This document shows positions 1,595 through 18,961 of a stretch of 64,000 nt of DNA, piece after piece (the stretch's first letter is position 1; every line of letters begins with the position of its first letter). Under the pieces are notes generated by a model, which worked only from the letters and a program-made list of their open reading frames with translations, searched no databases and had not been told where the DNA came from. The translations under genes and the position numbers were made by a program. Source of the stretch: Polyangium mundeleinium (GTDB lineage Bacteria; Myxococcota_A; Polyangia; Polyangiales; Polyangiaceae). The stretch covers positions 1,715,711 through 1,779,710 of the forward strand of contig NZ_JAQNDO010000001.1 in the NCBI RefSeq assembly GCF_028369105.1. Direction: 5' to 3'.

Positions 1595-1684
1595 CGCCCG
1601 AGCAGCATCCGAGCTTGCTTGACACGCATCCCCCCTCGCTTCGATCCTGCCGCCCCGGCCCTCGCCCGGGGGGAAGCCTTGTTC

Positions 1685-2794
1685 ATGACGCCGAGACTCG
1701 CCACGGTTCTGCGCTCCATCGTCCTCGTCCTCGTCGTGCTCGTCGCCGCGGCCTGCAGTAGCCGCAGCAAGGACGGGCCCGGCGCCTCCTCAGACAAACC
1801 TCGCGTCGCGGTTTCGATCTTTCCGCTCTGGGACATCGCGCGTCGCGTCGCGGGCGACGGGCTCGACGTCGTGCTCGTGCTGCCGCCGGGCCGCTCCGAG
1901 CATAGCTACGACCCGACGCCGAAGGAGATGGCGCAGGTCGCGAAGAGCAAGCTCGGCATCTCGGTCGGCCTCGGCATGGATGGATGGCTGGAGAAGATCG
2001 TGCGGGGCGCCGCGGGCACGGACGTGCCGATCGTGCAGCTCGGCCCGAAGGCGAACCCGCGGCGCATGACGGCCGAGGAGGTCGGCGCCGAGGCCGCCGA
2101 GGAGGGCGAAGACCACGACGAGAAGGGCCACGACGATCACCACGACGACAAGGCGAAGCACGAGCACGACCACGAGAAACATGCCGACGGCCGCGAGCAT
2201 GACGACGGTGATCACGCGCCGAAGCCCGAGCCCAAGGGCGCGGCGAAGGGCGAGCACGACCACCACGGCCATCACCACGCGCACGGCGCCGAGGACCCGC
2301 ATTTCTGGCTGGATCCGGTGCGCATGAAGTCGGTCGTGCCCGAGCTCGTCGCGGCGTTCGAGAAGCTCGATCCGAAGGGCGCCGAGGGCTACCGGGCGCG
2401 TGGCAAGGCGTTGGAGGCGGAGCTCGACAAGCTGCACGCGGACCTCGAAGCGCGCGCGAAGGGCTGGACGAAGAAGACGATCGTCACGTTCCACGGCTCG
2501 ATGGGTTATTTCGCCGAGCGCTACGGCCTCTCGATCGCGGCCGTGATCGAGCCGTTCCCGGGCAAGGAGCCGACGGCGCGGTACGTGAAGGACGTGCTCG
2601 CCGCGGTCGAGAAGACCAAGCCCGCGGCGCTCTTCTCCGAGCCGCAGCTCGATCGCAGGCCCGCGCAGGTGATCGCCGATCAGGGGAAGCTGCCGCTCTT
2701 CGAGCTCGATCCGATCGGCGGCAGCGCCGGCGCCGAGACGTACGAGAAGCTCCTCCTGAAGAACGCCGACGTCCTCGACAAGGCCTTGAAATGA
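1685..2794 (+). CDS. znuA: Zinc ABC transporter substrate-binding lipoprotein ZnuA with a long His/Asp/Glu-rich loop.
   Basis: The real start is MTPRLATVL, computed from the track ORF 950..2794. The signal peptide and lipobox LVAAAC|SS are present. The His-rich loop reads HDDHHDDKAKHEHDHEKH...HDHHGHHHAHG. Conserved ZnuA/TroA-like blocks (FHGSMGYFAERYGL) follow. Confidence 0.85.
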   Translation: MTPRLATVLRSIVLVLVVLVAAACSSRSKDGPGASSDKPRVAVSIFPLWDIARRVAGDGLDVVLVLPPGRSEHSYDPTPKEMAQVAKSKLGISVGLGMDGWLEKIVRGAAGTDVPIVQLGPKANPRRMTAEEVGAEAAEEGEDHDEKGHDDHHDDKAKHEHDHEKHADGREHDDGDHAPKPEPKGAAKGEHDHHGHHHAHGAEDPHFWLDPVRMKSVVPELVAAFEKLDPKGAEGYRARGKALEAELDKLHADLEARAKGWTKKTIVTFHGSMGYFAERYGLSIAAVIEPFPGKEPTARYVKDVLAAVEKTKPAALFSEPQLDRRPAQVIADQGKLPLFELDPIGGSAGAETYEKLLLKNADVLDKALK

Positions 2795-3618
2795 GCGCGG
2801 TGCACGCCGAAGCGGACGGGATGCCGCAAGGGCATTTCACGCTGCCCGATCCCTCGCTGTCGCGGGTTTTGGAGGTGGAGAACCTCATCGTCGACGTGCC
2901 CGGGCGGAGGCTGCTCGACGGGATCTCGTTCTGGGTGCCGAAGGGCGAGTTCGTGTGCCTCTGCGGCCCGAACGGCGCGGGCAAGAGCACGTTCCTGAAG
3001 ACGGTGCTCGGCCTGATGCCGCCGACGAGCGGCTCGATCCGCATCCTGGGCAAACCCGCGCAAAAAGCGCTGCGGGACGTGGGCTACGTGCCGCAGCGCA
3101 AGACGAGCGATATGACCTTCCCTGCCCGCTCGATCGACCTCATCGTGGCGAGCATGCGCGGGAGCTGGCCTTTGCGCATCCGCGAGGAGGAGCGCGCCCG
3201 CGCGATCGAGATCCTGCGGCACGTGGGCGGGGAGAAGCTGCTCGAAAAGGAGATCGCGCGGCTCTCGGGCGGCGAGACGCAGCGGGTCTTTTTGGCGCGG
3301 GCGCTCGTGAACAAGCCGTCGCTCGTGATCCTGGACGAGCCGACGGCAGGCGTCGACGTGAAGGGCCGAGCTGAGTTCCTCGATTTGCTGGCGGAGATCT
3401 CGGCGAGCGACGAGCTCGCGGCGATCCTCGTGACACACAACCTGGCGGCGGTCGCGCGTTGCGCCGAGCGGGTGGTGTACCTCGACGCGGGGCGCGTCTC
3501 TGCGTGGGGATTGCCGAGCGAGCTGCTCGGCCAGGCGTCGCTTTCGGCGATATCGGCCGTGGCGGGCGGCGACCACGCGGCGCATTCGCATCACCACAAA
3601 TTGCCGGACGAGGAGTGA
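2791..3618 (+). CDS. znuC: Zinc ABC transporter ATP-binding protein ZnuC.
   Basis: Walker A (GPNGAGKST), ABC signature (LSGGETQRV) and Walker B (LVILDEPTAGVD) are all present. The start ATG overlaps the znuA stop (ATGA). Confidence 0.9.
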   Translation: MSAVHAEADGMPQGHFTLPDPSLSRVLEVENLIVDVPGRRLLDGISFWVPKGEFVCLCGPNGAGKSTFLKTVLGLMPPTSGSIRILGKPAQKALRDVGYVPQRKTSDMTFPARSIDLIVASMRGSWPLRIREEERARAIEILRHVGGEKLLEKEIARLSGGETQRVFLARALVNKPSLVILDEPTAGVDVKGRAEFLDLLAEISASDELAAILVTHNLAAVARCAERVVYLDAGRVSAWGLPSELLGQASLSAISAVAGGDHAAHSHHHKLPDEE

Positions 3619-3624
3619 ACGTTC

Positions 3625-4446
3625 GTGGACGGATTGCTCGAGCCCTTGCTGGTGCCCTTCATGATGCGGGCGATGATCGCCGGCGCGGTGGTGGGCGGTC
3701 TCTGCGCGATGATCGGCGTCTTCGTGGTGCAGCGGGGCCTCTCGTTCATCGGCGACGGCCTGGCGCACGCGGCGTTCGGCGGCATCGCCCTCGGCCTTCT
3801 GCTCGGCGTGTCGCTGGAGCGAATGACGTGGGTGGCGCTGCCGTTCACGGTGCTGATCGCGCTCGGAATCGGTTATGTCCTGCGGCGCGGGAGCCTGCGC
3901 GGGGACGTGGCGACGGGCGTGTTTTCGGCGGTGTCGTTCGCGCTCGGCGTGCTCCTTCTGGGGCTCCGGTCGACGGACGGTCCGCAGGTGAACGTGGAGA
4001 CGGTGCTCTTCGGGAGCATCTTGGCGATATCCCCGGACGATCTGATCACGGTGGGCGTGGTCGGCGTGGTGACGACGCTGCTCATGGCATTCACGTGGAC
4101 GAAGCTCGCGTATGCGACGTTCGACCCGGAGCTCGCGGCGCTGTCGGGCGTGAAGGTGGCCGCGCTCGATTACATGTTGCTCGCGCTGACGGCCGTGGTG
4201 ATCGTGGTGGCCGTGAAGACGGTGGGGATCGCGCTGGTGAGCTCGTTCGTGGTGATCCCGGCCGCGACCGCGAAAATGGTGGGCCGGAGCATCGGGCGCG
4301 TGGCGCTGCTCGCGGTGGCCATCGGGGTCGTCGGGTCATCGATTGGATTGATGCTTTCGTACTACGCGGACGTGGCCAGCGGGGCGACGATCATCCTGAC
4401 GCTGGGGGGGGTGTTCGGACTCGCCCTTTTGTTCAAGAAAAAGTGA
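3625..4446 (+). CDS. znuB: Zinc ABC transporter permease ZnuB.
   Basis: It is a 273-aa polytopic membrane protein of the ABC-3 family. The start is a GTG 7 nt after the znuC stop, completing a znuACB operon. Confidence 0.85.
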   Translation: MDGLLEPLLVPFMMRAMIAGAVVGGLCAMIGVFVVQRGLSFIGDGLAHAAFGGIALGLLLGVSLERMTWVALPFTVLIALGIGYVLRRGSLRGDVATGVFSAVSFALGVLLLGLRSTDGPQVNVETVLFGSILAISPDDLITVGVVGVVTTLLMAFTWTKLAYATFDPELAALSGVKVAALDYMLLALTAVVIVVAVKTVGIALVSSFVVIPAATAKMVGRSIGRVALLAVAIGVVGSSIGLMLSYYADVASGATIILTLGGVFGLALLFKKK

Positions 4447-4498: not shown

Positions 4499-5344
4499 TT
4501 GTCGGTTCGCCCGGGGATCGATACACTGCCTCTCATGGCTCTGTCGGCACGTCCCACGTGGCGGGTGAACCCGGCGGATCCCCGCGCTCCGAGCCAGGAA
4601 GAGTGGGATCTCATGTCGGAGGCGGAGCGGGCGCACGTGGAGGCGACCCTGCCGTCCGAGTTCGACCTCGGGCTGGAGCCGCCCGAGGGGGATCCGCACT
4701 GGACGGCCATTGCGAACGCGCGGAAGACGCTGGAGACGTTTTTCAGGCGGATCGGGCGCAAGATCTACATCTCGGGGGGGCTCGCGGTGTATTACCCCGG
4801 CGAGGAGATGTGCTCGCCCGATCTCCTGGCGGTGGTCGACGTGGAGCCGCGTCCGCGCACCTCCTGGGTGGTTTCCCGGGAGGGCAAGGGGCTCGACTGG
4901 GCGCTCGAGGTGCTGCACGCGGGGGACGCGGCGAAGGACCAGCGCAACATCGAGCGGTATGCGCGGCTCGGCATCCACGAGTATTTCATGTTCGATCGGA
5001 GGCGGCTGAGGCTCTCGGGGTTCCGATTGCCGCCCGCGGAGCACGGCGCGCGTTCCCGGGCTTATCGGCCGATCGTCCCCCAAGGCGGGCGGTATACGTC
5101 GGAGGTCCTCGGGCTGGAGTTGTTGGTGGAGGGCGAGAAGCTACGTTTCCTCTTCGGAGGTGCCGCGCTGCCGGACGCGGAGGAGACGATCGCCAAGCTG
5201 GAGAGCTTGCTGGGCGAGGCGCTCGCGCGGCACGAGGAAGATGCACGCAGGGCCGAGGAAGAGGCGAGGCGCCGGGAGGAGCTCGAAGCGGAGCTCGCCG
5301 CCATGCGCGTGGAGCTCGAACGGCTGAAGAAGGGGCAATCCTGA
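4499..5344 (+). CDS. Uma2-family (DUF820) putative restriction-endonuclease-like protein.
   Basis: Uma2-like blocks are visible (DLLAVVDVEPRP, YARLGIHEYFMFD), followed by a C-terminal coiled-coil EEARRREELEAELAAMRVELERL. The start could instead be the Met at 4535. Confidence 0.65.
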   Translation: MSVRPGIDTLPLMALSARPTWRVNPADPRAPSQEEWDLMSEAERAHVEATLPSEFDLGLEPPEGDPHWTAIANARKTLETFFRRIGRKIYISGGLAVYYPGEEMCSPDLLAVVDVEPRPRTSWVVSREGKGLDWALEVLHAGDAAKDQRNIERYARLGIHEYFMFDRRRLRLSGFRLPPAEHGARSRAYRPIVPQGGRYTSEVLGLELLVEGEKLRFLFGGAALPDAEETIAKLESLLGEALARHEEDARRAEEEARRREELEAELAAMRVELERLKKGQS

Positions 5345-5345
5345 G

Positions 5346-6263
5346 TCAGCTCTCGCCAAACCAAATCCGCGCGAACACCCGCGGCCGCGCCTTCTCGATC
5401 GGCCCCTGGGCTTCCTCGTCCGACACCAGGATCGCCGCCACGCCCGCCGCGTCGTCCCCCGCGAACGCGCGCAGCGCGACCCGCACCCGTTCGCCGGCGA
5501 AACTCGGCTTTCGGTAGGCGATCTCCGCGGCGCGTGCGATTTGCGGGTTTTTCCGGCCGTGGTCCCACAACCGGCGCAGCGCGGCTTCCACGAAGAGGCG
5601 CGGATAGACCAGCGAATTGACGTGCTGGTTCGAATCCGTATGGTCGAGACCAAAGAGCACGTGCGTCGCGTCGAGCGTGAATGCGTCGTCGAGCCAGCGC
5701 GCCCCCGGCGGCAGCTCGATCGAGGCCTCGGGCGGTCGCCACGCATGGCGGTCGGGCGGCACCTCGGGAAAACCCGGCACGGAGACGCGCGTGATCTTGC
5801 GCGCCTCCGGGGGGCCGAACGGGCGCGTGACCACGTGCTCGGCAAAGACGCGGCCCGCGAGCAGGCGCTCGCCCGCGTTCGCAGGCGCGGGCCCGTGCGT
5901 GCGGCCTGCTTCGCCGTACACGTTGCACCACATGTTCAGCATCAGCCGCTCGACCGCGCCGTCTGCGCCCACGGTGTGCGCGATCTGGAATCGTCCCTCG
6001 CCTTCGACCTTGGACATCACCGACAGCGGGCCCTCGCCGCCCTCGATCACGAAACGGCTCAGGATCGGGAGGATCCCCTCCGCCGCGAGCGCGGGCGCCG
6101 CGCCCCGCTGCCACACCGCTCGCCACACCGAAGGCCCGAGCACCACGGGCATCGCGTCGAGGAGGAGTTTTCCGTTCTGACTAATGTCCTCGTAACGTAG
6201 GACCAGCGGCCCCGACGCGCGTTGTGCCTCCGGAACCTCGGGTTCTGCGGGGATGAACGTCAT
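5346..6263 (-). CDS. Hotdog-fold thioesterase (acyl-ACP / 4HBT-like thioesterase family).
   Basis: This is the C-terminal 305 aa of the 1499-aa minus-frame track ORF; the rest of that ORF is antisense artefact. The start is MTFIPAEPEV and the thioesterase motif reads LDHTDSNQHVNSLVYPRLF. It is convergent with the Uma2 gene with a 1-nt gap. Confidence 0.6.
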   Translation of the reverse strand: MTFIPAEPEVPEAQRASGPLVLRYEDISQNGKLLLDAMPVVLGPSVWRAVWQRGAAPALAAEGILPILSRFVIEGGEGPLSVMSKVEGEGRFQIAHTVGADGAVERLMLNMWCNVYGEAGRTHGPAPANAGERLLAGRVFAEHVVTRPFGPPEARKITRVSVPGFPEVPPDRHAWRPPEASIELPPGARWLDDAFTLDATHVLFGLDHTDSNQHVNSLVYPRLFVEAALRRLWDHGRKNPQIARAAEIAYRKPSFAGERVRVALRAFAGDDAAGVAAILVSDEEAQGPIEKARPRVFARIWFGES

Positions 6264-6371
6264 GCGCGGCGATGTAGCAACGTTTGGGCGCCTCGCCCGT
6301 GACAATTGTCGAACGTCGGCGTTCCTGGTGGGGCAGAGCTCATGTAGAATGCTTCGCGTGGGAGGGTCCAC

Positions 6372-9300
6372 ATGCGCGCTCGTCTGACTCGCTCGCCTGT
6401 CTTGCGCCGTGTTCTTCGTTCGTTTGGCCTGGTCGCCACCGTCGCTGCGGCCGCGTCGTGCCACGAGGGCATCGATACCACCCGGATTGCGCCGCCGAAG
6501 GCCACGCTCGGCGACGACCTTTACGGTGTGCTCTGCGATCGTATCGGCGCGAGTTCGCTGACCGAAGATCTCACGGGCGGATCGTACCATGCGATCTGCC
6601 ACTACTCGAACCAGGGGATCTACGCGGACACAGTCGATACGAGCTTCCTGCCGCCCGCGCGCGGGGCCGAGCAGGAGACGGCGCGCGCGCTCGGCATCGC
6701 CAAGGTCGAGGCCATGGCGAAGCGGCGCAGCGACCTCGTGCAGGCGTTCAACGCGATCTTTCCCGACATCGAGATCGACGACGTCACGACCGAGGCCGAG
6801 GGCGACAAGGTGCGGCTGCACGACGCGCTCCTGTCGTTCAGTCAGAACCTCTCGCGCCTCTACGAGTCGAATCCGTTCGAGCCCCAAGGAACGCCCACGG
6901 TGCCCGCCTCGACACGCGCGCTCGGCGAGGTCTTCGCCTCGTTCATGCAGAGCGAGCCCGCACGTCAAGCCTTCTCGAAGATATGGGGACGGCAAGGGTA
7001 CAGGCCGACGGGCGCGGCGCTCGGCGCGGTGCGGCCCTTGCTCTCGTATCCGCGGCTGCGTCCGCTCCTCGGCAGCGCGCTCGATGTGCTCGCGCCCGAG
7101 GGCGTGATGGCGCCCGAGCTCGCGCAGATCCTTCGCGTCGTGGAGCGGGATCTCGCGACCTCGAAGCCGACGCTCGCGCCGCTCGTGCCGCTCGTCGTGG
7201 ACCCGGCGACGGCGCAGCCGAATCGGCCGATGGAGACGCTCGAGATGCTGTCGCGGATCCTGCTCGACCAGGACGCGCGGTACGCGAAGGACGAAGCCGC
7301 AGAGCCGACGTGGATCGCGCGGCGGGATCGGCGTGGGTTTGTCGTTCCGTTCGGCAATGTGCCGGGGCAGGCGGGCACGGTGCCCGCGCCGTTCGCGGAT
7401 ACGGACGGTGATGGGTTCGCGGACACGGACGAGTTCGGGCAGTTCGTCACGGACATCAACGTGCCCGTCGCGGCGCTCGCGCCGTTCAGCCCGCAAGGAA
7501 CGCCGGGCACGGACGCCTATGGCCGCGCCGAGCCGCAGATGTACGAATACGTCGACACGTCGCGCACGCTGATCGGCGCGGTCGCGCAGGATCTCGCGCC
7601 GCTCGTGGACGCGACGCAGTACGCGCCGAGCGCGGGCGACGACGCGTGGAAGGACGAGCGCGAGACGTTGATGTACGCGGTCGCGGGGGCGACGATGCTG
7701 CTCGGGGATCGCGAGGACGCGGTCTACGATCTGGAGACCGAGGAGGTCAAACCCGCGGGGACCGCGTGTGCGAGCTGTGTCCCGTATCGGCGTTTCAAGG
7801 CCGATACCTCGCCGCTGCCGGATCTCGCGCATGCGCTCGGGCAGATCCTCGCGGATCCGGAGTCGGATGCGCTCGTGCTCGGGCTCATCGATCTCGTGGA
7901 GAACCACGAGCAGGAGCTTTCGCGGCTGCTCGGCGCGGCGCTGAAGATCCGGAAGATCGCGGAGGGCCACGACGTGCTCGCGGCGCAGGGCAAGGAGAAG
8001 CTCGCGGAGATTCCGTACGAGGCGCCGATTTGGGACGAGATTGCGGCCGTGATGGGGCGGGTCACGCAGCGGCCGGGGCTTACGGCGAAGCTCATCGGAT
8101 CGTTCGCAGATCCGGCGTTCGTGACGCCGACGGGCGGCGTGTCGCACATGGGCGAGTCGCTCATGCGGCTCATGACGACCCGCGACGAGATGACGTATTA
8201 CGACGACGACCTCAATGGTCCGGCGTGGAACGTCACGACGAACAACACGCTCGATCCGTCGACGCCCGTCGATCGGACGAAGCCGCTCGCGGGGGAGAAC
8301 CGCTCGTGCTGGGAGCGGACGCTCGACATCATTCACCACGCGAACAACGTGAAGGCGTGTAACAAGCAGGGCGCGAAGGTGAAAGCGGCGCTCGGCAGCC
8401 TCACGGTGTCGTGGCCGCTCATCGGTAGCTACGACGAATGCGAGCTGCTCGCGTTCCCGAACCTCGGGGTGTTTTACCTCGACTCGGTCCTGCCGGCCAA
8501 TCACCCCAAGCGGGCCGAGTTCAAGATCAAATCGGGCACGCTCGAAGGCATTCTGAACTTCCTCGGTGCCTTCACGGACAAGGGCGCGCTCTTCGAGCAG
8601 TCGTCGGGCATCACGGGCCTGACGCTGAAGCCGGAACCGAAGGCGCTGAACCGGCTCGTCTTTTTCGGCGCGACGTCGGATCAGTTCAGCGTGCTGCCGG
8701 ACATCGACCTCTACATCCTCGGCGGCAACGCGAAGAACAAGAAGACGAACGATTTCATCTCGAACCTGATCGAGCCCGTCCCCACCGTGGTTTGTCCGCA
8801 GACGCAGATCGAGACGCGCAAGTGCCAGACGTCGGCCGACATTCTCCGCCTGCGCGGAGAGAACACACTGTTCGTCCTCGAACGGTTCGGCTTCTACGAT
8901 TACCTGCGACCCCTGGTGACCACGTTCGCGAACGCGACGTGCACCGACGCTGGGCAATGCCAGCAGCAGAACGGCGAGTTCGTGGCCGACGGCGAGGTCA
9001 TGCTGCTCGACCTCATCGAGATCCTGAAGCGCCACTGGCCGGGGCCCGATCACGGCGCGGAGTGCGATTCGAGCGGGGATGCCAAGACGAACCCGCTCTA
9101 TTGCTCGGGCGCGGGCGTGAACACGTACGAGCCGATCCTGGCGGACGCGTTCATGACCGACATCGTGCCCGCGCTGCACGAGTTCTCGAAGGCGATGCGC
9201 GACGTCTCGAAGATCACGGTCGCGCGTGGGCCGAACGCGGGCAAGGTGCTCACGGGCGCCGACGTGCTCGAAAAGACCGCGCAGCTCCTGTTCGACCCGG

Positions 9301-10316
9301 CGTACGCCGCGGCCGCGGGGATGACGGATCGGAAGGGGAACAAGGGCACGACGTGGGTGGACGGGACGCCGCAGGCGCAGCACACGGTGTTCACGTTGTT
9401 CGCCGACGGGCTCCACGGAATGGATCTGCGCTTCGACAACGCGTGTGGCTGCTCCGGGAAGACGGGGCAGGAGCTCTCCGATTGCCAGGCGGCGTACGAC
9501 ACGTGCAAGGCAGACGCGGAGCGGCGCAAGGGGCAATGGAAGCGGGCGCGCTCGCAGCTCGTGGATCAGTTCCTCGCCGTGGAGGGCGAGGGCGCGGCGG
9601 CGAAGTTCGCGAACCCGGCGATCCCGCGGGCGCTCTCGACGACGCTGCGCGTGTTCCGCGAGCAGGTGAACGCGCATTGCCCGGATCGCGAGAATGGGAC
9701 GCCGTGTACCTGGGCGAAAGACGAACTCGGCAAATCGCTCGCCGACGGGCTCGATAGCCCGATGGTGGCCGCGCTCGTGGACCTCTTGGAGAAGATCCGG
9801 CAGGACGAGACGGCGCGGCGTGAGCTCGAACGGCTGCTCGATCATCTCCTGTCGTCCGCGAGCGACGGGCAGGCGCTCGAAGCGACGCTCTCGTCACTCG
9901 CGGACGCCTTGCAAGCGCTGCTCGCCGATACCGAGATCGCGCCGCTCCTCAATGCGGCGGCCCCGGGCGCGCGGCCCGAGGACGAGGCGGGGAACAAGGG
10001 CGCATTGCCGGCGGCGCTGCAGCTCCTGAAGGCGCTCAATTCGGACGTGTACGACAAGTACCACGTGATGGATTACATCCTGCCGAACCTCGTGACGCCG
10101 ATGGATCCGGTGAACGGCGTGGCGAGGCTCTCGCCGCTGGAAATCATCATGGATACGGTGGCCGAGGTGAGCCGCATCGACGCGGCGGCGAACCCGGGGC
10201 CGCTCGCGCCCACCGATTACGAGACGATCTTCGGCTCCGCGCGTGATTTCCTGACGAGCCCGACCCGCGGCCTCGAGCAGATCTACACCATCGTCCAGAA
10301 GCGGCCGCGTCAATGA
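6372..10316 (+). CDS. Large (1314 aa) secreted Cys-rich lipoprotein of unknown function, carrying a thrombospondin-type-3-like calcium-binding motif.
   Basis: Signal peptide and lipobox (VAAAAS|CHEG) are present. The motif FADTDGDGFADTDEFGQ has the DxDxDGxxD shape. Many paired Cys are visible (CPQTQIETRKC, CGCSGKTGQELSDCQAAYDTC). Composition is non-biased over 4 kb. Confidence 0.8.
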   Translation: MRARLTRSPVLRRVLRSFGLVATVAAAASCHEGIDTTRIAPPKATLGDDLYGVLCDRIGASSLTEDLTGGSYHAICHYSNQGIYADTVDTSFLPPARGAEQETARALGIAKVEAMAKRRSDLVQAFNAIFPDIEIDDVTTEAEGDKVRLHDALLSFSQNLSRLYESNPFEPQGTPTVPASTRALGEVFASFMQSEPARQAFSKIWGRQGYRPTGAALGAVRPLLSYPRLRPLLGSALDVLAPEGVMAPELAQILRVVERDLATSKPTLAPLVPLVVDPATAQPNRPMETLEMLSRILLDQDARYAKDEAAEPTWIARRDRRGFVVPFGNVPGQAGTVPAPFADTDGDGFADTDEFGQFVTDINVPVAALAPFSPQGTPGTDAYGRAEPQMYEYVDTSRTLIGAVAQDLAPLVDATQYAPSAGDDAWKDERETLMYAVAGATMLLGDREDAVYDLETEEVKPAGTACASCVPYRRFKADTSPLPDLAHALGQILADPESDALVLGLIDLVENHEQELSRLLGAALKIRKIAEGHDVLAAQGKEKLAEIPYEAPIWDEIAAVMGRVTQRPGLTAKLIGSFADPAFVTPTGGVSHMGESLMRLMTTRDEMTYYDDDLNGPAWNVTTNNTLDPSTPVDRTKPLAGENRSCWERTLDIIHHANNVKACNKQGAKVKAALGSLTVSWPLIGSYDECELLAFPNLGVFYLDSVLPANHPKRAEFKIKSGTLEGILNFLGAFTDKGALFEQSSGITGLTLKPEPKALNRLVFFGATSDQFSVLPDIDLYILGGNAKNKKTNDFISNLIEPVPTVVCPQTQIETRKCQTSADILRLRGENTLFVLERFGFYDYLRPLVTTFANATCTDAGQCQQQNGEFVADGEVMLLDLIEILKRHWPGPDHGAECDSSGDAKTNPLYCSGAGVNTYEPILADAFMTDIVPALHEFSKAMRDVSKITVARGPNAGKVLTGADVLEKTAQLLFDPAYAAAAGMTDRKGNKGTTWVDGTPQAQHTVFTLFADGLHGMDLRFDNACGCSGKTGQELSDCQAAYDTCKADAERRKGQWKRARSQLVDQFLAVEGEGAAAKFANPAIPRALSTTLRVFREQVNAHCPDRENGTPCTWAKDELGKSLADGLDSPMVAALVDLLEKIRQDETARRELERLLDHLLSSASDGQALEATLSSLADALQALLADTEIAPLLNAAAPGARPEDEAGNKGALPAALQLLKALNSDVYDKYHVMDYILPNLVTPMDPVNGVARLSPLEIIMDTVAEVSRIDAAANPGPLAPTDYETIFGSARDFLTSPTRGLEQIYTIVQKRPRQ

Positions 10317-11815
10317 CCAGAAACACCTCCCCGCGGAAGCGCGCCCTCGCCTTGGGCGCGCTCGCCGCCGTTTCTCTCGGGCTCTTCTCCGAATCCGCCG
10401 GCGCAGCGGGCCTCTATCTGTCCGAGCGTGGCGTGCGCCCGCTCGGTCGGGGCGGGGCGTTCGTCGCGGGCGCCGACGATCTCGGGTCCGTCGTCTACAA
10501 CCCCGCGGGGCTTTACGACGCCGGGATGAGCGTGCTCTTCGACGCGAGTTACGTTCATTTTTCGAGCGAATACACGCGCCGCACGATCGTCCGGCAGACG
10601 GATCCGAACACGGGCGCGACCGTGAACGAGCGCGTGCAGACGTTCGATCCGGTCCGGGGGAGCGCGCCGTTTCTGCCGATCCCGACGCTCGGGTTTTCGT
10701 TTGTCCCGCACGATCAATGGGTCGTAGGCGTCGGGCTTTGGGCACCGTACGTGGGCGTCGCGACGTATCCCGAGACGTTGAACGGGCAGCCCGCGCCGCA
10801 GCGGTATTCGCTGCTCTCGCTGGAAGGCTCGATCCTCGCCGTGGGCGGCGCGTACGCGGCCTATGCGCCGACGCCGAATCTGCGGATCGGCGCGGGGGTT
10901 GAGGTGCTCGCGGGGACGTTCCGCAGCACGGTGGTCTTTTCGGGGTGCGTGCCGGACCGGTTCTTCTGCGCGCCGGAGCAGCCTTCGTGGGACGTGCTCG
11001 CGGAGCTCGCCGTCGGGCCGATCGTGGCGCCGTCGGCGAACGCGGGCGTGATTTACATCCCGCACCCGAAGGTGCGGGTGGGTTTGTCGGGGCATTTGCC
11101 GTTCTGGGTGCGGTCGAGCGGGACGATCCGGACGCGGCTCCCGTCGGCGGCGCCGTTCGCGACGGCGCGGCAGGAAGGCGAGGACGCGGACGTGGCCTTC
11201 GAGCTGCCGTGGAACGTGCGGCTCGGCGTGGAGGCGCGGCCAAGCGACAAGCTCCGGGCCGAGCTCGCGGTGGCCTACGAGGATTGGGGCGTGCACGATA
11301 GCATTCGCGTGAATCCGAACGGGGTCGCGCTGAAGAACGTGGTGGGGTTTCCCGAGACGTACCTCTTGCCGCCCGTGAACCTGCCGCGCAATTTCCGGGG
11401 CGCGTTCTCGGCGCAGGTCGGCGGCGAATACGCGATTCCCGTGGGGAAGATGCAGCTCGACGTGCGGGCGGGGCTCCGCTTCGAGACGAGCGCGGTGCCG
11501 AACGAGTACGTCTCGGTGCTGACGATCGATTCGAACAAGCTGACGCCTTCGGTTGGCGCGGGGCTCCACGTCGGGCCCTTCCGGTTCGACCTCGTGGTGG
11601 CGCACGCGATCATGTTCTCGCAGGACGTCGATCCACGGGAAGCGAAGATCCCGCAGGTGAGCCCGCTCGTGGCGAACCCCGCGCCGCAGCCGAACATCAT
11701 CAACGGCGGGACGTATTCGGCGAGCGCGACGATCGTGGGCCTCGGCGCGATGTACACGTTCGGGAAGGCGGCGCCGGCGAAGCCGAAGCCCGAGCCGGCG
11801 GGGAGCGGGACGTAG
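10313..11815 (+). CDS. FadL/TodX (OMPP1) family outer-membrane hydrophobic-compound transport barrel.
   Basis: After a signal peptide the N-terminal block reads AGLYLSERGVRPLGRGGAFVAGADDLGSVVYNPAGL, matching the FadL N-terminal hatch consensus. Alternating beta-strand patterns follow and the C-terminus ends in an aromatic residue. The ATG overlaps the stop of the upstream lipoprotein (ATGA). Confidence 0.8.
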   Translation: MTRNTSPRKRALALGALAAVSLGLFSESAGAAGLYLSERGVRPLGRGGAFVAGADDLGSVVYNPAGLYDAGMSVLFDASYVHFSSEYTRRTIVRQTDPNTGATVNERVQTFDPVRGSAPFLPIPTLGFSFVPHDQWVVGVGLWAPYVGVATYPETLNGQPAPQRYSLLSLEGSILAVGGAYAAYAPTPNLRIGAGVEVLAGTFRSTVVFSGCVPDRFFCAPEQPSWDVLAELAVGPIVAPSANAGVIYIPHPKVRVGLSGHLPFWVRSSGTIRTRLPSAAPFATARQEGEDADVAFELPWNVRLGVEARPSDKLRAELAVAYEDWGVHDSIRVNPNGVALKNVVGFPETYLLPPVNLPRNFRGAFSAQVGGEYAIPVGKMQLDVRAGLRFETSAVPNEYVSVLTIDSNKLTPSVGAGLHVGPFRFDLVVAHAIMFSQDVDPREAKIPQVSPLVANPAPQPNIINGGTYSASATIVGLGAMYTFGKAAPAKPKPEPAGSGT

Positions 11816-12028: not shown

Positions 12029-12109
12029 GGAGCCCGCGCTCTCCGGCGAAAAGCGGGGCGCGCGCCGGGGCCGTGACGTCGGCGTGCGTGCGTGCTGAGA
12101 TGGCGCCGC

Positions 12110-13501
12110 ATGAGCGGGCGCGAGGACGAGGACGAGTTCGACGACAAGGTGGAGACGGAGCTCGTGCGCAGGCCCGACCGCGCGGCCTCGCCCGGGTTTT
12201 CGCTCGTGGTCGTCGCCGGCGCGAGCCGCGGACAGACGTTCACGATCGCGCCCGGTCACCCGTCGCGCGTGCTCGTCGGGCAGAGCCCGATGTGTGATCT
12301 CCGCGTCGACGATCGGCTGGTGTCGCGCAGGCACGCGGCCTTCGAGATCCTGCGCGGCAAGCTCCGCGTGACGGACCTCGAGTCGACGAACGGTACGTCG
12401 GTGCAAGGCGTGGCCGTCCTCGGCGCGCTGCTCACGGGTGGCGAGATCGTCACGATGGGCGAGACGCAGATCCGCATCGACAGGCTCGCCGATCAGGCGC
12501 CCGCGGCGATCCCGTCGGCCGTGCGGTTCGGCGCGATGTTCGGCGCGAGCCCGGAGATGCGCGCGCTGTATCCGCTCTGCGAGCGGCTCGCGAGCGCGGC
12601 CGTGCCCGTGCTCATCGAGGGCGAGACGGGCACGGGCAAGGAGGTGCTGGCCGAGTCGCTGCACGAGCTCGGGCCACGCAAGCAGGGGCCGTTCGTGGTG
12701 TTCGATTGCACGGCGGTCCCGCCGAACCTCGTCGAGTCCGCGCTCTTCGGGCACGAGCGCGGGGCGTTCACGGGCGCGACCGAGTCCCGCAAGGGCGTGT
12801 TCGAAGAGGCGCACGGCGGCACGCTTTTGCTCGACGAGATCGGCGATCTGGAGCTGCCGTTGCAGGCGAAGCTGCTTCGCGCGCTCGAGCGCTCGGAGGT
12901 GCAGCGCGTCGGATCGAACCGGTGGGTTCGCGTGGACGTGCGGATCCTGGCGGCGACGCGGCGCGACCTCGATCACGAGATCCAGGCGGGGAGGTTCCGC
13001 GACGATCTGTTTTACCGGCTCGCGGTGGCGCGGATCGAGCTGCCGCCGCTGCGGAGGCGATCGGGGGACGTGGTCGTCCTGGCGCAACACTTCTGGCGTC
13101 AACTGGCCGGCAAGGACACGCCGTTCCCGCCCGATTTCGCGCGGCGGATCGCGGACTACGCGTGGCCGGGCAACGTGCGCGAGCTCTACAACGCCGTCGC
13201 GCGTCGCGTGGCCCTCGGCGAGCTCGCGCCGATCGCGACGCTCCGGCCGAACACGCCGCGCGCGTCGGGCGTGCCGCGGCCGAGCACGCCGCCGAAGCCC
13301 GCGCCGGCGGATTTCACCGAGGAGATCCTCGCGCTCGATTTGCCTTTGCCGCGGGCGCGGGAGCGCGTGGTCGAGGAGTTCGAGCGGCGGTACGTGCAGC
13401 GGGTGCTCACGGCGCACGGCGGCAACGTGGGCGCAGCCGCGGCGGCGTCGGGGATTGCAAGGCGCTACTTTCAGCTCATCAAGGCGCGCCACAAGGGGTA
13501 G
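12110..13501 (+). CDS. Sigma54-dependent transcriptional activator with an N-terminal FHA domain (FHA - AAA+ - HTH).
   Basis: The FHA-like N-terminus (PSRVLVGQSPMCDLRVDDRLVSRRHAAF) is followed by Walker A (GETGTGKE), the GAFTGA sigma54-contact motif (ERGAFTGA) and a C-terminal Fis-type HTH. The start is MSGRED. Confidence 0.85.
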   Translation: MSGREDEDEFDDKVETELVRRPDRAASPGFSLVVVAGASRGQTFTIAPGHPSRVLVGQSPMCDLRVDDRLVSRRHAAFEILRGKLRVTDLESTNGTSVQGVAVLGALLTGGEIVTMGETQIRIDRLADQAPAAIPSAVRFGAMFGASPEMRALYPLCERLASAAVPVLIEGETGTGKEVLAESLHELGPRKQGPFVVFDCTAVPPNLVESALFGHERGAFTGATESRKGVFEEAHGGTLLLDEIGDLELPLQAKLLRALERSEVQRVGSNRWVRVDVRILAATRRDLDHEIQAGRFRDDLFYRLAVARIELPPLRRRSGDVVVLAQHFWRQLAGKDTPFPPDFARRIADYAWPGNVRELYNAVARRVALGELAPIATLRPNTPRASGVPRPSTPPKPAPADFTEEILALDLPLPRARERVVEEFERRYVQRVLTAHGGNVGAAAAASGIARRYFQLIKARHKG

Positions 13502-13513
13502 TCTCGGGGCTGA

Positions 13514-15019
13514 ATGGAAGGCGAACGCGGCGCGCCCCGGGTGCTCGTGCTGGGCCGTTATCGCGTGCACGACGAGATCGCGGCGGGCGGCATGGCCACG
13601 GTCCACCTCGGGCGGCTCGTCGGGGACGAGGGTTTTTTGCGGACGGTGGCGATCAAGCGCCTCCATCCCTGGCACGCGCGGATCGCCGAGGTCGTCGCGA
13701 TGTTCACGGACGAGGCGCGGATCGCCGCGCGGATCCGGCACCCGAACGTGGTGGGCACGCTCGACGTCGTGTCGCAGGAAGGCGAGGTCTTCCTGGTGAT
13801 GGAGTACGTGCACGGCGAGCCGCTGTCGCGGCTCATCAGCGCGGCGAGCAAGCGCAAGCAGAAGATCCCGCCGTCGATCGTGGCCGCGGTGCTCGCGAAC
13901 GCGCTGCGGGGGCTCCACGCGGCGCACGAGGCGAGGGACGCGCGGGGCGAGCCGCTCGGCGTGGTGCACCGCGACGTGTCGCCGCAGAACGTGCTCGTCG
14001 GCGCGGACGGCGTTGCGCGTGTGCTCGACTTTGGCATTGCGCGCGCGGCCGGGCGGGCGCACGTGACGAGCGACCATACGATCAAGGGAAAACTCGCGTA
14101 CATGTCGCCCGAGCAGCTCCGCGGGGAGGTGCTCGATCGGCGGGCGGACGTGTATGCGGCGGGCGTCGTGTTGTGGGAGACGCTCACGTGTCGGCGGCTT
14201 TATGCGGGCGCGTCGGAGGACCTCGCGCTCGTGCGCCTGCTCGAAGCCGAGGTCGAGCCGCCGAGCAAACGCGTGGCCGCGCTGCCCGCTTGTTTCGACG
14301 AGGTCACGTTGCGCGCGCTCCGGCGCGACGCGGACGCGCGTTTTCCCACGGCGCTCGAAATGGCGATGGCGCTCGAAGCGTGCGGGCCGCTGGCGACGCC
14401 GTCGGAGATCGCCGCGTGGGTCGAGGAAATGGCGGGGGATACGCTCGCCGAGCGCGCGCAGTTGATCCTGGCGATCGAGAGCGAGGAGCGCCGCTCGTTG
14501 CGGCCCATGCTTTCGAGCCCGTCCGCGCCGAGCCCCGAGGAGGCGACGTTGCTCCACGTGCAGCCGTCCCGAGAGGAGCCCCCGGCGGCGACGGTGGTGG
14601 CTTTGACGGCGAAAACGGAGGTGCCAAGTGCGGCGCCGATGCATGTGCCGGAGCGACGCGTGACGCCGGTGGTGCTCGGGCTCGTCGGGCTCGTTGGGCT
14701 CCTCGTGGTGGTGTTGATCGTCATTCTGCTCCGGGGTGTGCCGGCGAGCACCGCGTCCGCGCAGAGCGCGCCTTCGATCGCCATGAGCGTCGCCACGCCC
14801 GAATCCGTGGTCACGAGCGCGCCCTCCGCTGCGGCCGCGCCGGCGCCTTCCGCGACGAGCGTCGTTTCGGCGGCGCCGCCGAGCGTTTCGCCCAGCGGGA
14901 CCGCGTCGCCGCGCCCGACGACGCCGCGGGCGAAACCTGCCGCCGCGAGCGCCGGCTGCGATCCACCCTTCTTCATCGACGCGTCCGGTCGAAAAAAGTA
15001 CAAACGGCATTGCCTTTGA
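13514..15019 (+). CDS. Hanks-type Ser/Thr protein kinase with a TM helix and a Ser/Ala/Pro-rich extracytoplasmic tail.
   Basis: The catalytic motifs are intact: VAIKRL, HRDVSPQNVLV, LDFGIAR, YMSPEQ. A TM helix (VVLGLVGLVGLLVVVLIVILL) follows. It lies immediately downstream of the FHA-sigma54 activator. Confidence 0.9.
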   Translation: MEGERGAPRVLVLGRYRVHDEIAAGGMATVHLGRLVGDEGFLRTVAIKRLHPWHARIAEVVAMFTDEARIAARIRHPNVVGTLDVVSQEGEVFLVMEYVHGEPLSRLISAASKRKQKIPPSIVAAVLANALRGLHAAHEARDARGEPLGVVHRDVSPQNVLVGADGVARVLDFGIARAAGRAHVTSDHTIKGKLAYMSPEQLRGEVLDRRADVYAAGVVLWETLTCRRLYAGASEDLALVRLLEAEVEPPSKRVAALPACFDEVTLRALRRDADARFPTALEMAMALEACGPLATPSEIAAWVEEMAGDTLAERAQLILAIESEERRSLRPMLSSPSAPSPEEATLLHVQPSREEPPAATVVALTAKTEVPSAAPMHVPERRVTPVVLGLVGLVGLLVVVLIVILLRGVPASTASAQSAPSIAMSVATPESVVTSAPSAAAAPAPSATSVVSAAPPSVSPSGTASPRPTTPRAKPAAASAGCDPPFFIDASGRKKYKRHCL

Positions 15020-15468: not shown

Positions 15469-16470
15469 ATGCCAGACCTCTACGAAAGTCTCGCGGCAGT
15501 TTCCCAGAAGGATAAGCAGCGGCGGGAGCGTTGCCTCGCCTACGCGCGTGAGAACGCGGTGGGCCCGGTGGAGGGGCTCTTCGCGCAGGAAGGGATGGTG
15601 CGGCGAATTTGGCGGGAAGGGGCCATGCTGGCCGCCATTCCGCCGGCGGTGGTCCTGGAGGTGCTCCTGCCCGAGGTGGCCGAGGGCGTGGGGAGGTTCA
15701 GTGATTATCAAACGAAGCTGATGGCGAGGACGCGGCGGACGGTGTACGCGACCCACGCGCTCGTTTTCGGCGATCTGTCGATGTCGATCGAGGTGGGGGG
15801 GCGGATCTTTCAGCTCCACGAGCGGGTCCGTGGTTCGATTTCGGCGCGTTCGAGCGAGGGGCGGGCAGGCACGCGGTATCGCGCGAACGATCCGGCCGCC
15901 CTGCAATGGGTGTTCGCCACGCTGGTGCAGGGGGCGCTGATGACGTACGAGGCGGCCGTGGAGCCGCTCGATCGGGACGAGCGGGCGCGTTTTTACGAGG
16001 AGTCGAAGCGATGGGGCGCCGTGGTGGGTTTGCCCCCGGAGCAATTGCCGCCCGACTGGGAGAGCTTCGAGCGTTATTTCGAGGGGATGGTGGAGGGGGC
16101 GCTGGAGCTCGGGGACATGGCGCGGGATATCCTGCGGGTGCTTTTTGGTCCGCCGTACATGCGCGGGGTCGCGAGGCTCTGCGCGGGGCTCTTGCCAGAG
16201 CGGTGGCGGAGCGCGGTGGGTTTGCCCTGGGACGCAGACGCAAAACGGGCGTACGAGCTCGCGCTCGGCACACTTCGTGGAGCGAGGTTTTTGCCGCCGG
16301 CCTTGCGGTACGTGCCTGCGTGGCACCAGGCGGCGGCGCGAATCGAGGCGGCGCGGGGAGAAGGGGTTTCGAGGACGACGCGGATCGTGCAGGCGCTCGA
16401 CGCGCGCGGGTGGATCCCCGCGGGGCTCGCGCCGCCGGAAGAGGTGATGCGGAGGTGCCCGCGCGGTTAG
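15469..16470 (+). CDS. MpaB/DUF2236-family putative oxygenase.
   Basis: The 333-aa protein is unbiased and carries the conserved DUF2236 blocks (RANDPAALQWVFATLVQGALMTYE, FERYFEGMV). Confidence 0.55.
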   Translation: MPDLYESLAAVSQKDKQRRERCLAYARENAVGPVEGLFAQEGMVRRIWREGAMLAAIPPAVVLEVLLPEVAEGVGRFSDYQTKLMARTRRTVYATHALVFGDLSMSIEVGGRIFQLHERVRGSISARSSEGRAGTRYRANDPAALQWVFATLVQGALMTYEAAVEPLDRDERARFYEESKRWGAVVGLPPEQLPPDWESFERYFEGMVEGALELGDMARDILRVLFGPPYMRGVARLCAGLLPERWRSAVGLPWDADAKRAYELALGTLRGARFLPPALRYVPAWHQAAARIEAARGEGVSRTTRIVQALDARGWIPAGLAPPEEVMRRCPRG

Positions 16471-18647
16471 TCTTCGGCGATGGCCTGGAGGAACGTGCGG
16501 GCGGCCATCGGCCCGGACAAACGGTAGGCGGCGCGGCTCGGGCGCGGGCCGACGTGCATGGCGACGTGCGGGGGCGGAAGCGCGGCGAACATCTCCTCGT
16601 CGAGGAGGTCGTCGCCGAGCGCGACGAGGCGGGCGCCGGAGGGAGCGCCTTCGACGAGCGAAGCCACGAGCGCGCCGCTCCCCGCGCCCATGGGGCGAAT
16701 CTCGACGATTTTATCGCCGGGGAGGATCTCGACGGGCGTGTTTTTGAGCAGGTCGCCGAGGTGGAGCCGTAGCTCCTTGGCCTGGAGCACGCCGAACTCG
16801 GGGTCGGCCATGCGGTAATGGAAGGTGAGGGAGGCGCTCTTTTCTTCGAGCAAGGTGCCCGGGGTGCGGGCGACGAACTGGCGGAGCAGGGGCAGGAATT
16901 TCGCATTCCAATCGGAGGGGATGTCCGTGCGGGGGCGCCATTCTCGCGCCGAGGCGTCGCGCGTCCAGAAGCCGTGCTCGGCGGCGAGCGCGATGGGCAG
17001 GTCGCCGAGCCAGCGCTCGAGGACGTCGCGCGTCCGGCCGCTGACGACGTGGACGCGCGTGCCGGGGCGGCGCGCGAGGGCCGTGAGCAGGTGCCGGAGG
17101 TCCGCATCGGGCGCGGCGTCGTTGGGGGCGCGGGCGAACCGGACGAGGGTGCCGTCGTAATCGAGGAGCAAGGTGAGACGCGGCGCTTTGCGGAGGTCCG
17201 AGGTGAGGCTTTCGAGGGCCGCGGACGTGGTCGCGCCGAGCGAGCGCCCGCTCGACGCATCGGATTGCTCTTCGAGCGTGGAGAGGAAGCTCTGCGCCCA
17301 GTTGTGGACGTCGTCCTCGAGGACCCGCTGCCGGAGGTTTTGCATGCGCTGCCGCCGCTCGCCCTGAGGCATCGTGAGGGCTCGCTTGAGCGTGGCCGCG
17401 ACGCCGCCGATGTCGTACGGATTGACGAGCAAGGCGTCGGCGAGCTCCGAGGCGGCGCCGGCGAACTCGCTGAGGACGAGCACGCCGTCCTCGTCGGTGC
17501 GGGACGCGACGAACTCCTTGGCGACGAGGTTCATGCCGTCGCGCAAGGGCGTGACGAGCATGACGTCGGCCGCGCGATACAGGGCGGCGAGCTGGCGCTC
17601 GTTGAACGAGCGATACATGGAGTGAATCGGCACGGAATGCACCGTGGCGTAGGCGCCGTTGATGCGGCCCACGAGCTCGTCGACCCGGCTGCGGAATCCC
17701 TGGTAGGCCTCGACGTTGGTGCGCGAGGGGACGGTGACCTGGACGAGGCGGACCTTGCCGCGGAGCGAGGGTTCGCGTTCGAGGAGGCGCTCGACGGCGA
17801 GGAGGCGGCGCGGGATGCCTTTCGTGTAATCGAGGCGGTCGATGCCGAGCAGGATGCGCTGGCCGGGCTGGCGGAAGGTTTGCGCCTCGGCGGTGACCTC
17901 GGGCGAGCCGGCGAGCGCGGAGAGCGCGGCGGCGTCGATGCCCATGGGGAAGGCGCCGAGCCGGACTTCGCGTCCTTCCGTGAAGACACGATCGACGTTG
18001 GCTTCGAGGCCGAGCACGTGGAGGAGCGACGACGCGAAATGGCGCAGGTACGAGAGCGTATGAAACCCGAGGAGGTCGGCGCCGAGCAGGCCTTCGAGGA
18101 TCTGCGTGCGCCAGGGGAGGATGCGAAAGACCTCGGCGGAGGGGAAGGGGATGTGGAGGAAAAACCCGATCCGCGCGTTCGGAATTTTCTTTCGCAGGAG
18201 GCCGGGGACGAGCATGAGCTGATAGTCGTGGATCCAGACGAGGTCGCCTTCGCGGTGGTGCGCGGCGATGAGGTCGGCGAATCGCTCGTTCACGCGGCGG
18301 TAGCTCTCCCAGTCGCGCTCGCCGATGGGGACCTGGTCGAGCAGGTAATGGAAGAGGGGCCAGAGGACGCCATTGGAGAATCCCTCGTAAAACCTGGAGA
18401 CCTCGCCCGGGGAGAGGTGGAGCGGGACGTACCGGAGATCTTCGAGGCGCGCTTCGAGGGCGGCGCGCTGTTCGGGCGGGAGGCGCGAGACGTCGCCGGG
18501 ATAGCCGAGCCAGAGGCCTCCCGAGCGCTCGTGGGGCCCCTTCATGCCGGTCGCGAGGCCTCCGGCGCTCCGGGTGACGTGGACCTCGCCATGCTCGACC
18601 TTCACGGTGACGGGCAGGCGGTTCGAAACGAGGAGCAGGCGAGCCAT
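16467..18647 (-). CDS. otsA: Bifunctional trehalose-6-phosphate synthase / trehalose-6-phosphate phosphatase (OtsA-OtsB fusion).
   Basis: The GT20 synthase blocks are present ([40 protein letters not shown]). A C-terminal HAD phosphatase domain follows ([10 protein letters not shown]...). The start is [12 protein letters not shown], computed from the track ORF. Confidence 0.85.
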
Positions 18648-18677
18648 GGCGGGGGAGGGTGGCACCGACAGAAAGTT

Positions 18678-18702
18678 TTGTCCACCAACGATATGCGGAC
18701 AA
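18678..18702. promoter_or_regulatory. Perfect 6-bp palindrome pair TTGTCC-N13-GGACAA in the 5' region of the otsA fusion gene.
   Basis: The sequence ttgtccaccaacgatatgcggacaa lies about 30 to 55 nt upstream of the otsA start (minus strand), inside the 315-bp divergent intergenic region. That region is locally lower in GC. Confidence 0.3.
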
Positions 18703-18961
18703 ATACTGCTTTCCCGGACGAACGGCACCAGGGAGATTCGGAAACTTCTTGCAAGGCCCTGGGGACGTGGGTAAGGTGGCCGCGACGCTGACGAAGCGTC
18801 GCCCTATGGTCTCCTCGCGCTGAGCACGAACCCCCGCCATTGCGACGCCGCTGCTCCTCATTGGAGTCGAGTTCCGGTCGTTCGCTCGTGGCGGATCAGA
18901 AAACGTGGTTGCTGCCTGCTCGGACGTCGGCTTCGCGGCCGGCGTGTGTCTGGAGATCGGT

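Follow-up and report, generated by a model that had tools for sequence, protein, structure and literature searches.

Outer-membrane barrels of the FadL type have long been regarded as stand-alone passive channels and, to our knowledge, the members of the family whose structures have been solved (FadL, TodX, TbuX and CymD) work alone. Pairs made of a surface lipoprotein and an outer-membrane barrel encoded by adjacent genes are familiar from TbpB/TbpA, HpuA/HpuB and SusD/SusC. Two described systems involve FadL-type barrels themselves. In Vibrio cholerae, the surface lipoprotein lysophospholipase VolA (VCA0863) is co-transcribed with a fadL homologue (VCA0862), and the proposed logic is that the lipoprotein acts on a hydrophobic substrate at the cell surface while FadL imports the product (PMC3656444). 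More recently, FadL-type barrels were shown to serve as platforms for surface lipoproteins in the β-barrel assembly machinery (BAM) of Bacteroidota, where BamH, a lipoprotein of the cell surface, associates with the FadL-like barrel BamG, and BamG2 and BamH2 are encoded by a putative operon (PMC12578637). Here we describe a gene pair from Polyangium mundeleinium (Myxococcota, Polyangia, Polyangiaceae), located in 64,000 nucleotides (nt) of contig NZ_JAQNDO010000001.1 (the window, whose positions are used as coordinates throughout), in which the gene of a giant lipoprotein of an uncharacterised family, hereafter BIG (6372..10316, + strand), is followed by that of a FadL/TodX-family outer-membrane barrel (10313..11815, +). 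The pair is probably an undescribed outer-membrane machine. A first-pass annotation of the same DNA knew of no description of a lipoprotein partner of this size for a FadL-family barrel; the pairing of a lipoprotein with a FadL barrel has the two precedents just cited (VolA–FadL and BamH–BamG), and what is new here is the partner itself, by its size, its family and a structural model without fold match.

Both open reading frames (ORFs) start with ATG and encode 1314 and 500 amino acids (aa), respectively; they are joined by an ATGA start/stop overlap, which reads directly in the sequence (10313..10316, +) and supports the translational coupling proposed in the first-pass annotation. The two ORFs were judged to be coding because the GC contents at third (GC3) and second (GC2) codon positions, 0.886 and 0.47 for BIG and 0.894 and 0.51 for the barrel, show the coding signature of a 69.6% GC genome, 69.6% being the value of the window sequence. 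Two antisense ORFs, 5346..9845 (−) and 10310..11605 (−), were rejected as genes, codon-position GC marking them as shadows. The NCBI gene model of BIG starts 10 codons further on, giving a protein of 1304 aa; we prefer the ATG at 6372 because this codon and the Shine–Dalgarno-like GGGAGGG that precedes it by 5–11 nt (6361..6367, +) are kept across 10 Polyangium loci, as is visible from the purine-rich block in the alignment of this clade. A promoter-like element, TTCCTG-N17-TAGAAT (6322..6350, +), was tentatively read by eye 5′ of BIG. Its TTCC and TGTAG.AT parts do not vary in an alignment of the 10 Polyangium-clade upstream regions, and the element is not called by a consensus promoter scanner.

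The association of the two genes is strongly conserved. A scan of one genome per species gave 63 loci, each from a different assembly, belonging to Polyangiaceae, to Polyangia or to metagenome-assembled genomes (MAGs) labelled Myxococcales, Myxococcota or Deltaproteobacteria; Sorangium is among the genera that carry the pair. A FadL orthologue (45–98% identity) lies immediately 3′ of BIG in all 62 loci having downstream DNA, with a gap of at most 23 nt in 60 of them. In 41 of these 62 loci, an in-frame start overlapping the BIG stop by 4 nt (NTGA) is available; the start codon nearest to the BIG stop was chosen, so that these overlaps are possible ones. Since the exact 4-nt overlap recurs in that many independent loci, it is not a chance arrangement. 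Note that in Chondromyces apiculatus about 250 nt separate the BIG stop from the start of FadL homology (L048:11840-12092), and this junction reads as GCV/PCV repeats in the FadL frame, pointing to a short tandem DNA repeat inserted between the genes.

The family reaches well beyond these loci. When 1.84 billion cluster representatives were searched with profiles of at most 1,200 positions, made from trimmed sequences, 891 BIG-family members were retrieved at E ≤ 1e-3, of which 361 at E ≤ 1e-30; the 150 full-length members among the matches listed are mostly about 1,040–1,450 aa long. All members that carry a taxon name are Myxococcota (among them Polyangiaceae, Sandaracinus, Kofleriaceae and Haliangiales), the rest being MAGs labelled Myxococcales or Deltaproteobacteria, and none of the taxon-named matches, a minority of the total, belongs to Myxococcia. 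Among five distant relatives (BIG 26–31% identical), four have a FadL-type gene next to the BIG homologue, either overlapping it by 4 nt with a Toluene_X gene (L064, from Haliangiales, and L070) or adjoining it (Toluene_X gene in L065 and L066), while the fifth (L067) carries a gene of the same FadL subfamily at a distance of 3.2 kb, on the opposite strand. The two genes are thus co-conserved in the loci scanned and in distant relatives, and BIG is not a known enzyme family; neither of the outcomes that the first-pass annotation had named as refuting its reading has occurred. The remotest BIG-like proteins (23–24% identity, about 1045 aa; L068:6001-11147 and L069:477-5674) keep the lipobox and the C-x3-(I/L)DTTR motif that follows it, but a 4-nt overlap couples their genes to that of a 670–683-aa protein that shows a hydrophobic segment at its N-terminus and weak matches of the TPR type. 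The possibility that the L068 partner is a barrel was rejected by Pfam and by inspection of its sequence.

No third gene is conserved with the pair: among the first downstream genes of 50 loci, no Pfam family occurs more than three times. As no other neighbour is conserved family-wide, the conserved unit consists of two genes, BIG and the barrel. About 40 Polyangiaceae loci outside Polyangium (L010–L063) have a glmU-like gene (NTP_transferase plus hexapeptide repeats) some 1.5 kb upstream of BIG; with few exceptions it is divergent, and in most loci ribA (GTP cyclohydrolase II) precedes it, as exemplified by genes L013:6431-7837 (−) and L013:5396-6241 (+). This synteny is absent from the genus Polyangium, the window having znuACB, a Uma2 gene and a 305-aa gene instead, and from the distant clades. 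We did not retain the glmU adjacency as a functional link: the synteny is real, yet its loss in Polyangium and in the distant clades makes it weak evidence.

Sequence features of BIG point to a lipoprotein. Its signal peptide and lipobox span residues 1–30 (...AAAS-C30; 6372..6461, +), the N-terminus MRARLTRSPVLRRVLRSFGLVATVAAAAS|C30 comprising a basic n-region, a hydrophobic core and the lipobox Cys. In an alignment of 26 diverse BIG-family members (A7; 27–50% identity to the window protein), C30 is invariant (26/26), as it is in relatives with 27–39% identity, and the lipobox reads AASC, ASSC, VASC or LASC among homologues. BIG therefore displays what defines a bacterial lipoprotein, namely a signal peptide that closes with a lipobox whose +1 Cys is invariant, and the first-pass annotation was right on this point. 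In Myxococcus xanthus, a Lys at +2 is an inner-membrane retention signal (PMC3222651); none of 41 BIG homologues has a Lys at this position. BIG is thus a putative acylated outer-membrane lipoprotein, the M. xanthus rule arguing, indirectly, against its retention in the inner membrane. The lipid anchor is directly followed by a conserved N-terminal motif, C-x3-4-(I/L/F)DTTR...TLGDD.YG.LCDR.GA...D(L/V)(S/T)G.S(Y/F)...C(H) (6462..6602, +), so that the tether between C30 and the conserved block is 3–5 residues long. G47, C55, D66 and C76 are invariant in the 26 members, and C55 is missing in the remotest relatives.

Mature BIG comprises 1284 aa (138.7 kDa, pI 4.8). The first-pass annotation had described it as Cys-rich, with disulfide-type pairs and a TSP3-like DxDxDGxxD calcium site. 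The richness does not hold, as there are 20 Cys (about 1.5%), but the pairs do: Cys are gained and lost strictly pairwise among homologues (55/76, 466/469, 663/690, 808/818, 857/863, 898/911, 1025/1045, 1027/1038 and 1103/1112), which is a signature of disulfides. Likewise, the calcium loop stands but not the domain. The DxDxDG-type loop (residues 343–356, DTDGDGFADTDEFG; 7398..7439, +), which reads D343-T-D-G-D-G-F-A-D-T-D353, has D343, D347, D351 and G356 invariant family-wide in alignment A7, whereas the EF-hand_1 match reaches 12.6 bits, below the Pfam cut-off of 25.4; the predicted calcium feature is a DxDxDG motif, not an EF-hand or TSP3 domain. Invariant polar residues in this alignment also include R318/D319/R321, N643/S645, R761, H888 and E920.

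The family could not be named, in agreement with the first-pass annotation. Apart from this sub-threshold EF-hand and noise, Pfam and NCBIfam give nothing significant on BIG; more specifically, there is no significant Pfam match to the SusD and TbpB families, no hydrolase domain from either library in BIG or in the 26 diverse members, and no weak Pfam match that recurs across these members. A profile search found no sequence relative of BIG in the PDB, and internal repeats or duplication were rejected by profile–profile comparison of four segments. An AlphaFold2 model of residues 115–1314, built from 71 sequences, is nevertheless confident (predicted local distance difference test, pLDDT, 89.8; predicted template modelling score, pTM, 0.85) and displays a mixed α/β architecture. 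Modeled alone, the N-terminal half is poor (pLDDT 69, pTM 0.30), which we take to mean that BIG would fold as a single unit whose two halves need one another, not as a chain of independent domains. A Foldseek search with the 115–1314 model retrieved no match at E ≤ 0.001 among 350,542 PDB chains, and a fold search of BFVD gave none either. Hence the remote-homology and fold checks, which might have revealed an enzyme family or a PDB fold, returned neither; BIG is a new family without fold match in the libraries searched (Pfam, NCBIfam, PDB and BFVD), and we found no publication describing it in the literature searched.

The assignment of the second protein to the FadL/TodX family was confirmed: residues 25–483 match positions 4–421 of the 421-position Toluene_X profile (PF03349), i.e. 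the full profile, with 83.6 bits for a cut-off of 29.7. A profile built from 20 orthologues also matches TbuX (3bry, 8.4e-8) as well as CymD and Escherichia coli FadL (1t16; both about 1e-3). The Sec signal peptide (residues 1–31, ...SAGA|AGLY; 10313..10405, +), whose cleavage site is read from the AxA motif, is immediately followed by a hatch-domain N-terminus typical of the family, AGLY.SERGVRPLGRGGAFVAGADD...YNPAG (10406..10513, +), with NPA at residues 63–65. This stretch is conserved, right after the signal peptide, in the 20 orthologues and in the five distant partner barrels, and its hatch/NPA spacing is presumably equal to that of E. coli FadL. The window barrel thus resembles E. coli FadL, TodX and TbuX of Pseudomonas/Ralstonia and CymD in family, hatch N-terminus and NPA motif; compared to these solved channels, its subfamily has about 40 extra residues, a Cys-stapled loop, in part of its members a tail and, as an obligate neighbour, a giant lipoprotein. 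The FadL family is further characterised by a barrel of 14 strands, in which a kink in strand S3 opens the wall laterally.

The barrel does not qualify as a BamG or a PorV. In BamG, about 10–12 conserved residues are added at the N-terminus and plug the lateral opening (PMC12578637), whereas no such extension is found in the window barrel, whose mature end opens directly with the hatch motif. The NCBIfam BamG model (NF053685) scores 14.3 bits against a cut-off of 250, and the PorV/PorQ model (NF033709) 19.8 bits against 90, over 46 residues only. Four features make the barrel look like a transporter: the full Toluene_X profile, the hatch/NPA motif, the lack of an extension, and BamG and PorV scores that stay well under their cut-offs. 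Its substrates are predicted, from the family, to be hydrophobic.

The long non-strand segments of the barrel deserve attention. Long connections in barrels of this type are normally extracellular loops, and their conservation is unusual in the FadL family; in the 20 orthologues, the segments DPNTG, CVPDRFFCAPEQPxWD and RLPxxPxFxxAxQEGxDA are nevertheless highly conserved, and the conserved segments of the barrel comprise residues 88–125, 205–245 and 262–296. One of them holds the Cys pair C212/C219 (FSGCVPDRFFCAPEQPxWD; 10946..10969, +), which is present in 20 of 20 orthologues and in four of the five distant partner barrels and likely corresponds to a disulfide-stapled loop. Such strong conservation of long connections suggests a fixed protein partner on the extracellular side. 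This differs from BamG, whose BamH-contacting loops are not conserved (PMC12578637). Finally, the barrel ends with a Pro/Lys/Ala-rich tail (residues 484–500; 11762..11812, +) that follows the terminal ...MYTF and varies in length among orthologues: 17 aa in the window, about 100 aa in L014 (L014:11843-13534), none in L047 and L060, and absent from the distant partners; Pro/Lys/Ala/Glu-rich low-complexity tails also occur in L021 and L035. A tail past the terminal aromatic residue, the expected site of the barrel C-terminal signal, is unusual for an outer-membrane barrel.

How does the pair compare with the described systems? It shares with TbpB/TbpA and HpuA/HpuB a lipoprotein gene that precedes the barrel gene, but the barrels of these systems and of SusD/SusC are 22-stranded, TonB-dependent and drive the energised import of hydrophilic ligands, whereas the window barrel is predicted to be a passive channel of the FadL type, for hydrophobic molecules. 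As in the VolA–FadL system, the genes of an outer-membrane lipoprotein and a FadL barrel lie side by side, and in V. cholerae they are co-transcribed; there, however, fadL comes first, with a gap of 16–23 bp (PMC3656444), while here BIG comes first and the genes overlap. In addition, VolA, a lipase by annotation, proved to be a lysophospholipase, whereas BIG, unrelated to it in sequence and taxon, has neither a hydrolase domain nor a hydrolase fold. With BamG–BamH, the pair shares a FadL-homologous barrel and a large lipoprotein, which in the Bacteroidota complex is at the surface, bound via the extracellular loops of BamG, with the conserved BamH N-terminus at the barrel (PMC12578637); besides the differences between the barrels noted above, BIG has no PDB fold match and the taxa differ (Bacteroidota versus Myxococcota). 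Closer in taxonomy, the outer-membrane proteome of M. xanthus contains, both in abundance, a putative lipoprotein, MXAN7039 (34 peptides), and a FadL, MXAN7040 (13 peptides) (PMC3222651). By their locus-tag numbering alone, these are a lipoprotein and a FadL encoded side by side and, going by tags and description only, they may form an analogous pair in Myxococcia.

We favor, with a probability of roughly 0.4, a stable outer-membrane complex in which BIG acts together with a FadL channel able to transport hydrophobic molecules, the surface location, the ligand and the direction of transport being what we infer. According to this scheme, the two-gene operon would yield equimolar amounts of BIG and of the FadL/TodX-type channel, which would assemble into a stable 1:1 complex in the outer membrane. 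BIG, its fold held together by about nine disulfides and one bound calcium ion, would rest on the long loops that the barrel conserves, most likely at the surface of the cell, where it would capture or handle a hydrophobic ligand; the ligand would then cross the membrane inwards via the FadL hatch and lateral-gate pathway. Such a logic would be shared with lipoprotein-first bipartite receptors like TbpB/TbpA and with VolA–FadL, and the reading of the first-pass annotation, in which a ligand would be captured at the surface and imported as by SusCD, is plausible. On the BIG side, the invariant lipobox, the lack of a +2 Lys, the co-varying Cys pairs and the calcium loop are all consistent with a protein suited to an oxidising, extracytoplasmic site.

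Several points weigh against this scheme. The contact between BIG and the barrel is itself a proposal, deduced from the operon and from co-conservation. The placement of the conserved barrel segments in extracellular loops is a prediction, as is the surface exposure of BIG, which may instead face the periplasm, and we did not find a surface-sorting rule for Polyangia. As BIG has no recognisable lipid-binding or hydrolase fold, the idea of ligand capture comes from the barrel alone. The remotest relatives, coupled to a non-barrel protein, suggest that the BIG-like fold is not intrinsically FadL-dependent. Lastly, one locus per assembly and the glmU adjacency in about 40 loci would suit a core function of the envelope better than an accessory for scavenging nutrients.

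This last point is where the serious rival of our scheme, an outer-membrane biogenesis or homeostasis machine, which we consider somewhat unlikely, finds some of its arguments. Here, the barrel would be a platform or a lateral gate and BIG a scaffold that places lipids or lipoproteins, in the manner of BamG–BamH or LptD–LptE. The presence of each of the 63 loci in a different assembly, the restriction of the named BIG members to Myxococcota, mostly to the class Polyangia, and the long-standing glmU/ribA synteny would fit a housekeeping role of this kind, as would surroundings that are otherwise unrelated and contain no conserved fatty-acid catabolic neighbour. BIG itself is large, non-repetitive and devoid of an enzyme-like fold, which might suit a scaffold, and with BamG there is a precedent for a FadL homologue serving as the anchor of surface lipoproteins (PMC12578637). 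The barrel, however, argues the other way: it lacks the hallmark N-terminal extension of BamG, scores 14 bits where the BamG cut-off is 250, and conserves the hatch/NPA as transporting FadLs do. Moreover, BIG matches no PDB chain, in a library presumed to include the 2025 BAM structures; the glmU adjacency, lost in Polyangium and in the distant clades, may be mere synteny; and no link connects the pair with genes for BamA, Lpt or lipid synthesis. A more specific version, which we hold to be very unlikely, would make the pair a Polyangia-specific core machine that builds or maintains the outer leaflet, for example by inserting non-lipopolysaccharide lipids (sphingolipids, ornithine lipids) or surface lipoproteins. 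Sorangium cellulosum So ce56, of a genus that carries the pair, reportedly lacks lipopolysaccharide (LPS), going by the title of a 2011 study from Keck et al. cited in PMC12971839, and this counts in favour of the biogenesis reading in general. If this version were true, the outer-leaflet machine would be a functional counterpart of LptD–LptE or BamG–BamH made from unrelated parts.

An export-and-display pair, in which the barrel would translocate BIG or anchor it at the surface, as Slam and PorV do for their clients, and BIG would then serve in adhesion, in contact with matrix or prey, or in motility, seems unlikely to us. Gene adjacency and stoichiometric coupling are compatible with it, and the short conserved motif right after the lipid anchor is what would be expected of a sorting or docking signal, all the more so as its DTTR part is retained in the remote relatives coupled to a different partner; a calcium loop and disulfides are also typical of extracellular proteins. 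On the other hand, no FadL-family member is known to translocate a folded lipoprotein of 139 kDa, the hatch domain that fills the lumen is conserved, the PorV score stays at 19.8 bits for a cut-off of 90, and neither Pfam nor the profile–profile comparison detects adhesin-type repeats or domains in BIG. Co-expression without a complex, with BIG as a periplasm-facing lipoprotein enzyme or binder acting on a compound before or after its passage through FadL, is quite unlikely: operon linkage alone does not prove contact, the M. xanthus +2 rule (PMC3222651) is silent on which face of the outer membrane is concerned and the invariant R318/D319/R321, N643/S645, R761, H888 and E920 could form an active site, but a 4-nt overlap that most lineages retain suggests that the two proteins are made in equal amounts, it is difficult to see why long barrel loops should be so strongly conserved if there were no fixed partner, and the PDB fold search detects no enzyme fold in BIG. 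Start/stop coupling is, besides, typical of subunits of one complex. Altogether, we keep the stable complex of BIG with a transport-competent channel as our preferred reading.

The neighbouring genes in the window were assigned by codon-position GC and Pfam. The direct upstream neighbor is a divergent 305-aa gene (5346-6263, −), whose CAT start (6261-6263) is kept in the genus and whose sole family match is a weak one, to the thioesterase-like 4HBT_2 (E 0.022). This gene is masked within the 1499-aa antisense shadow ORF 5346..9845 (−) that crosses the BIG gene, and a 187-aa ORF on the other strand (5617-6180, +) was rejected as being its shadow. Further upstream lie a zinc ATP-binding cassette transporter operon, znuA, znuC and znuB (950-4446, +; Pfam), and a Uma2-family gene (4499-5344; Pfam). 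The longest znuA ORF would encode 614 aa, but because the ZnuA domain is confined to residues 286–612 and because this ORF overlaps a minus-strand ORF with a good GC3 (587-1594, −), the true start of znuA is probably much later than 950.

Downstream of the pair, an FHA/sigma-54 activator (469 aa; 12092-13501, +; Pfam) is followed after 12 nt by a Ser/Thr protein kinase (501 aa; 13514-15019, +; Pfam), and their place beside the pair is kept only among the closest genomes of Polyangium (L001–L003, L006 and L043). The idea of a sigma-54 promoter upstream of 6372 was dropped, since the activator and the kinase are conserved within the genus only and since inspection by eye, no pattern search having been made, showed no convincing GG-N10-GC element. 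Next come the gene of an MpaB/Lcp-type oxygenase (rubber-oxygenase catalytic domain family; 15469-16470, +; Pfam) and that of an OtsA–OtsB fusion (trehalose-6-phosphate synthase/phosphatase, 753 aa; 16467-18728, −; Pfam), which are convergent, their 3′ ends sharing 4 nt. A tRNA-Leu(GAG) gene (46408-46491, +) is the sole Rfam or ARAGORN match within the 64-kb window.

In conclusion, the class Polyangia keeps a FadL-type barrel tied to a giant lipoprotein of roughly 1,050–1,350 aa that has no known domain, no repeats and no PDB relative, and yet is confidently modeled; the large BIG family appears to merit a new family and fold definition. The outer membrane of Polyangia has barely been studied, and some members reportedly lack LPS. 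With its two genes, the pair is a clean unit that can be put to the test. If the complex forms, it would represent a new type of outer-membrane architecture, in a lineage whose genomes are very large and whose secondary metabolism is rich.

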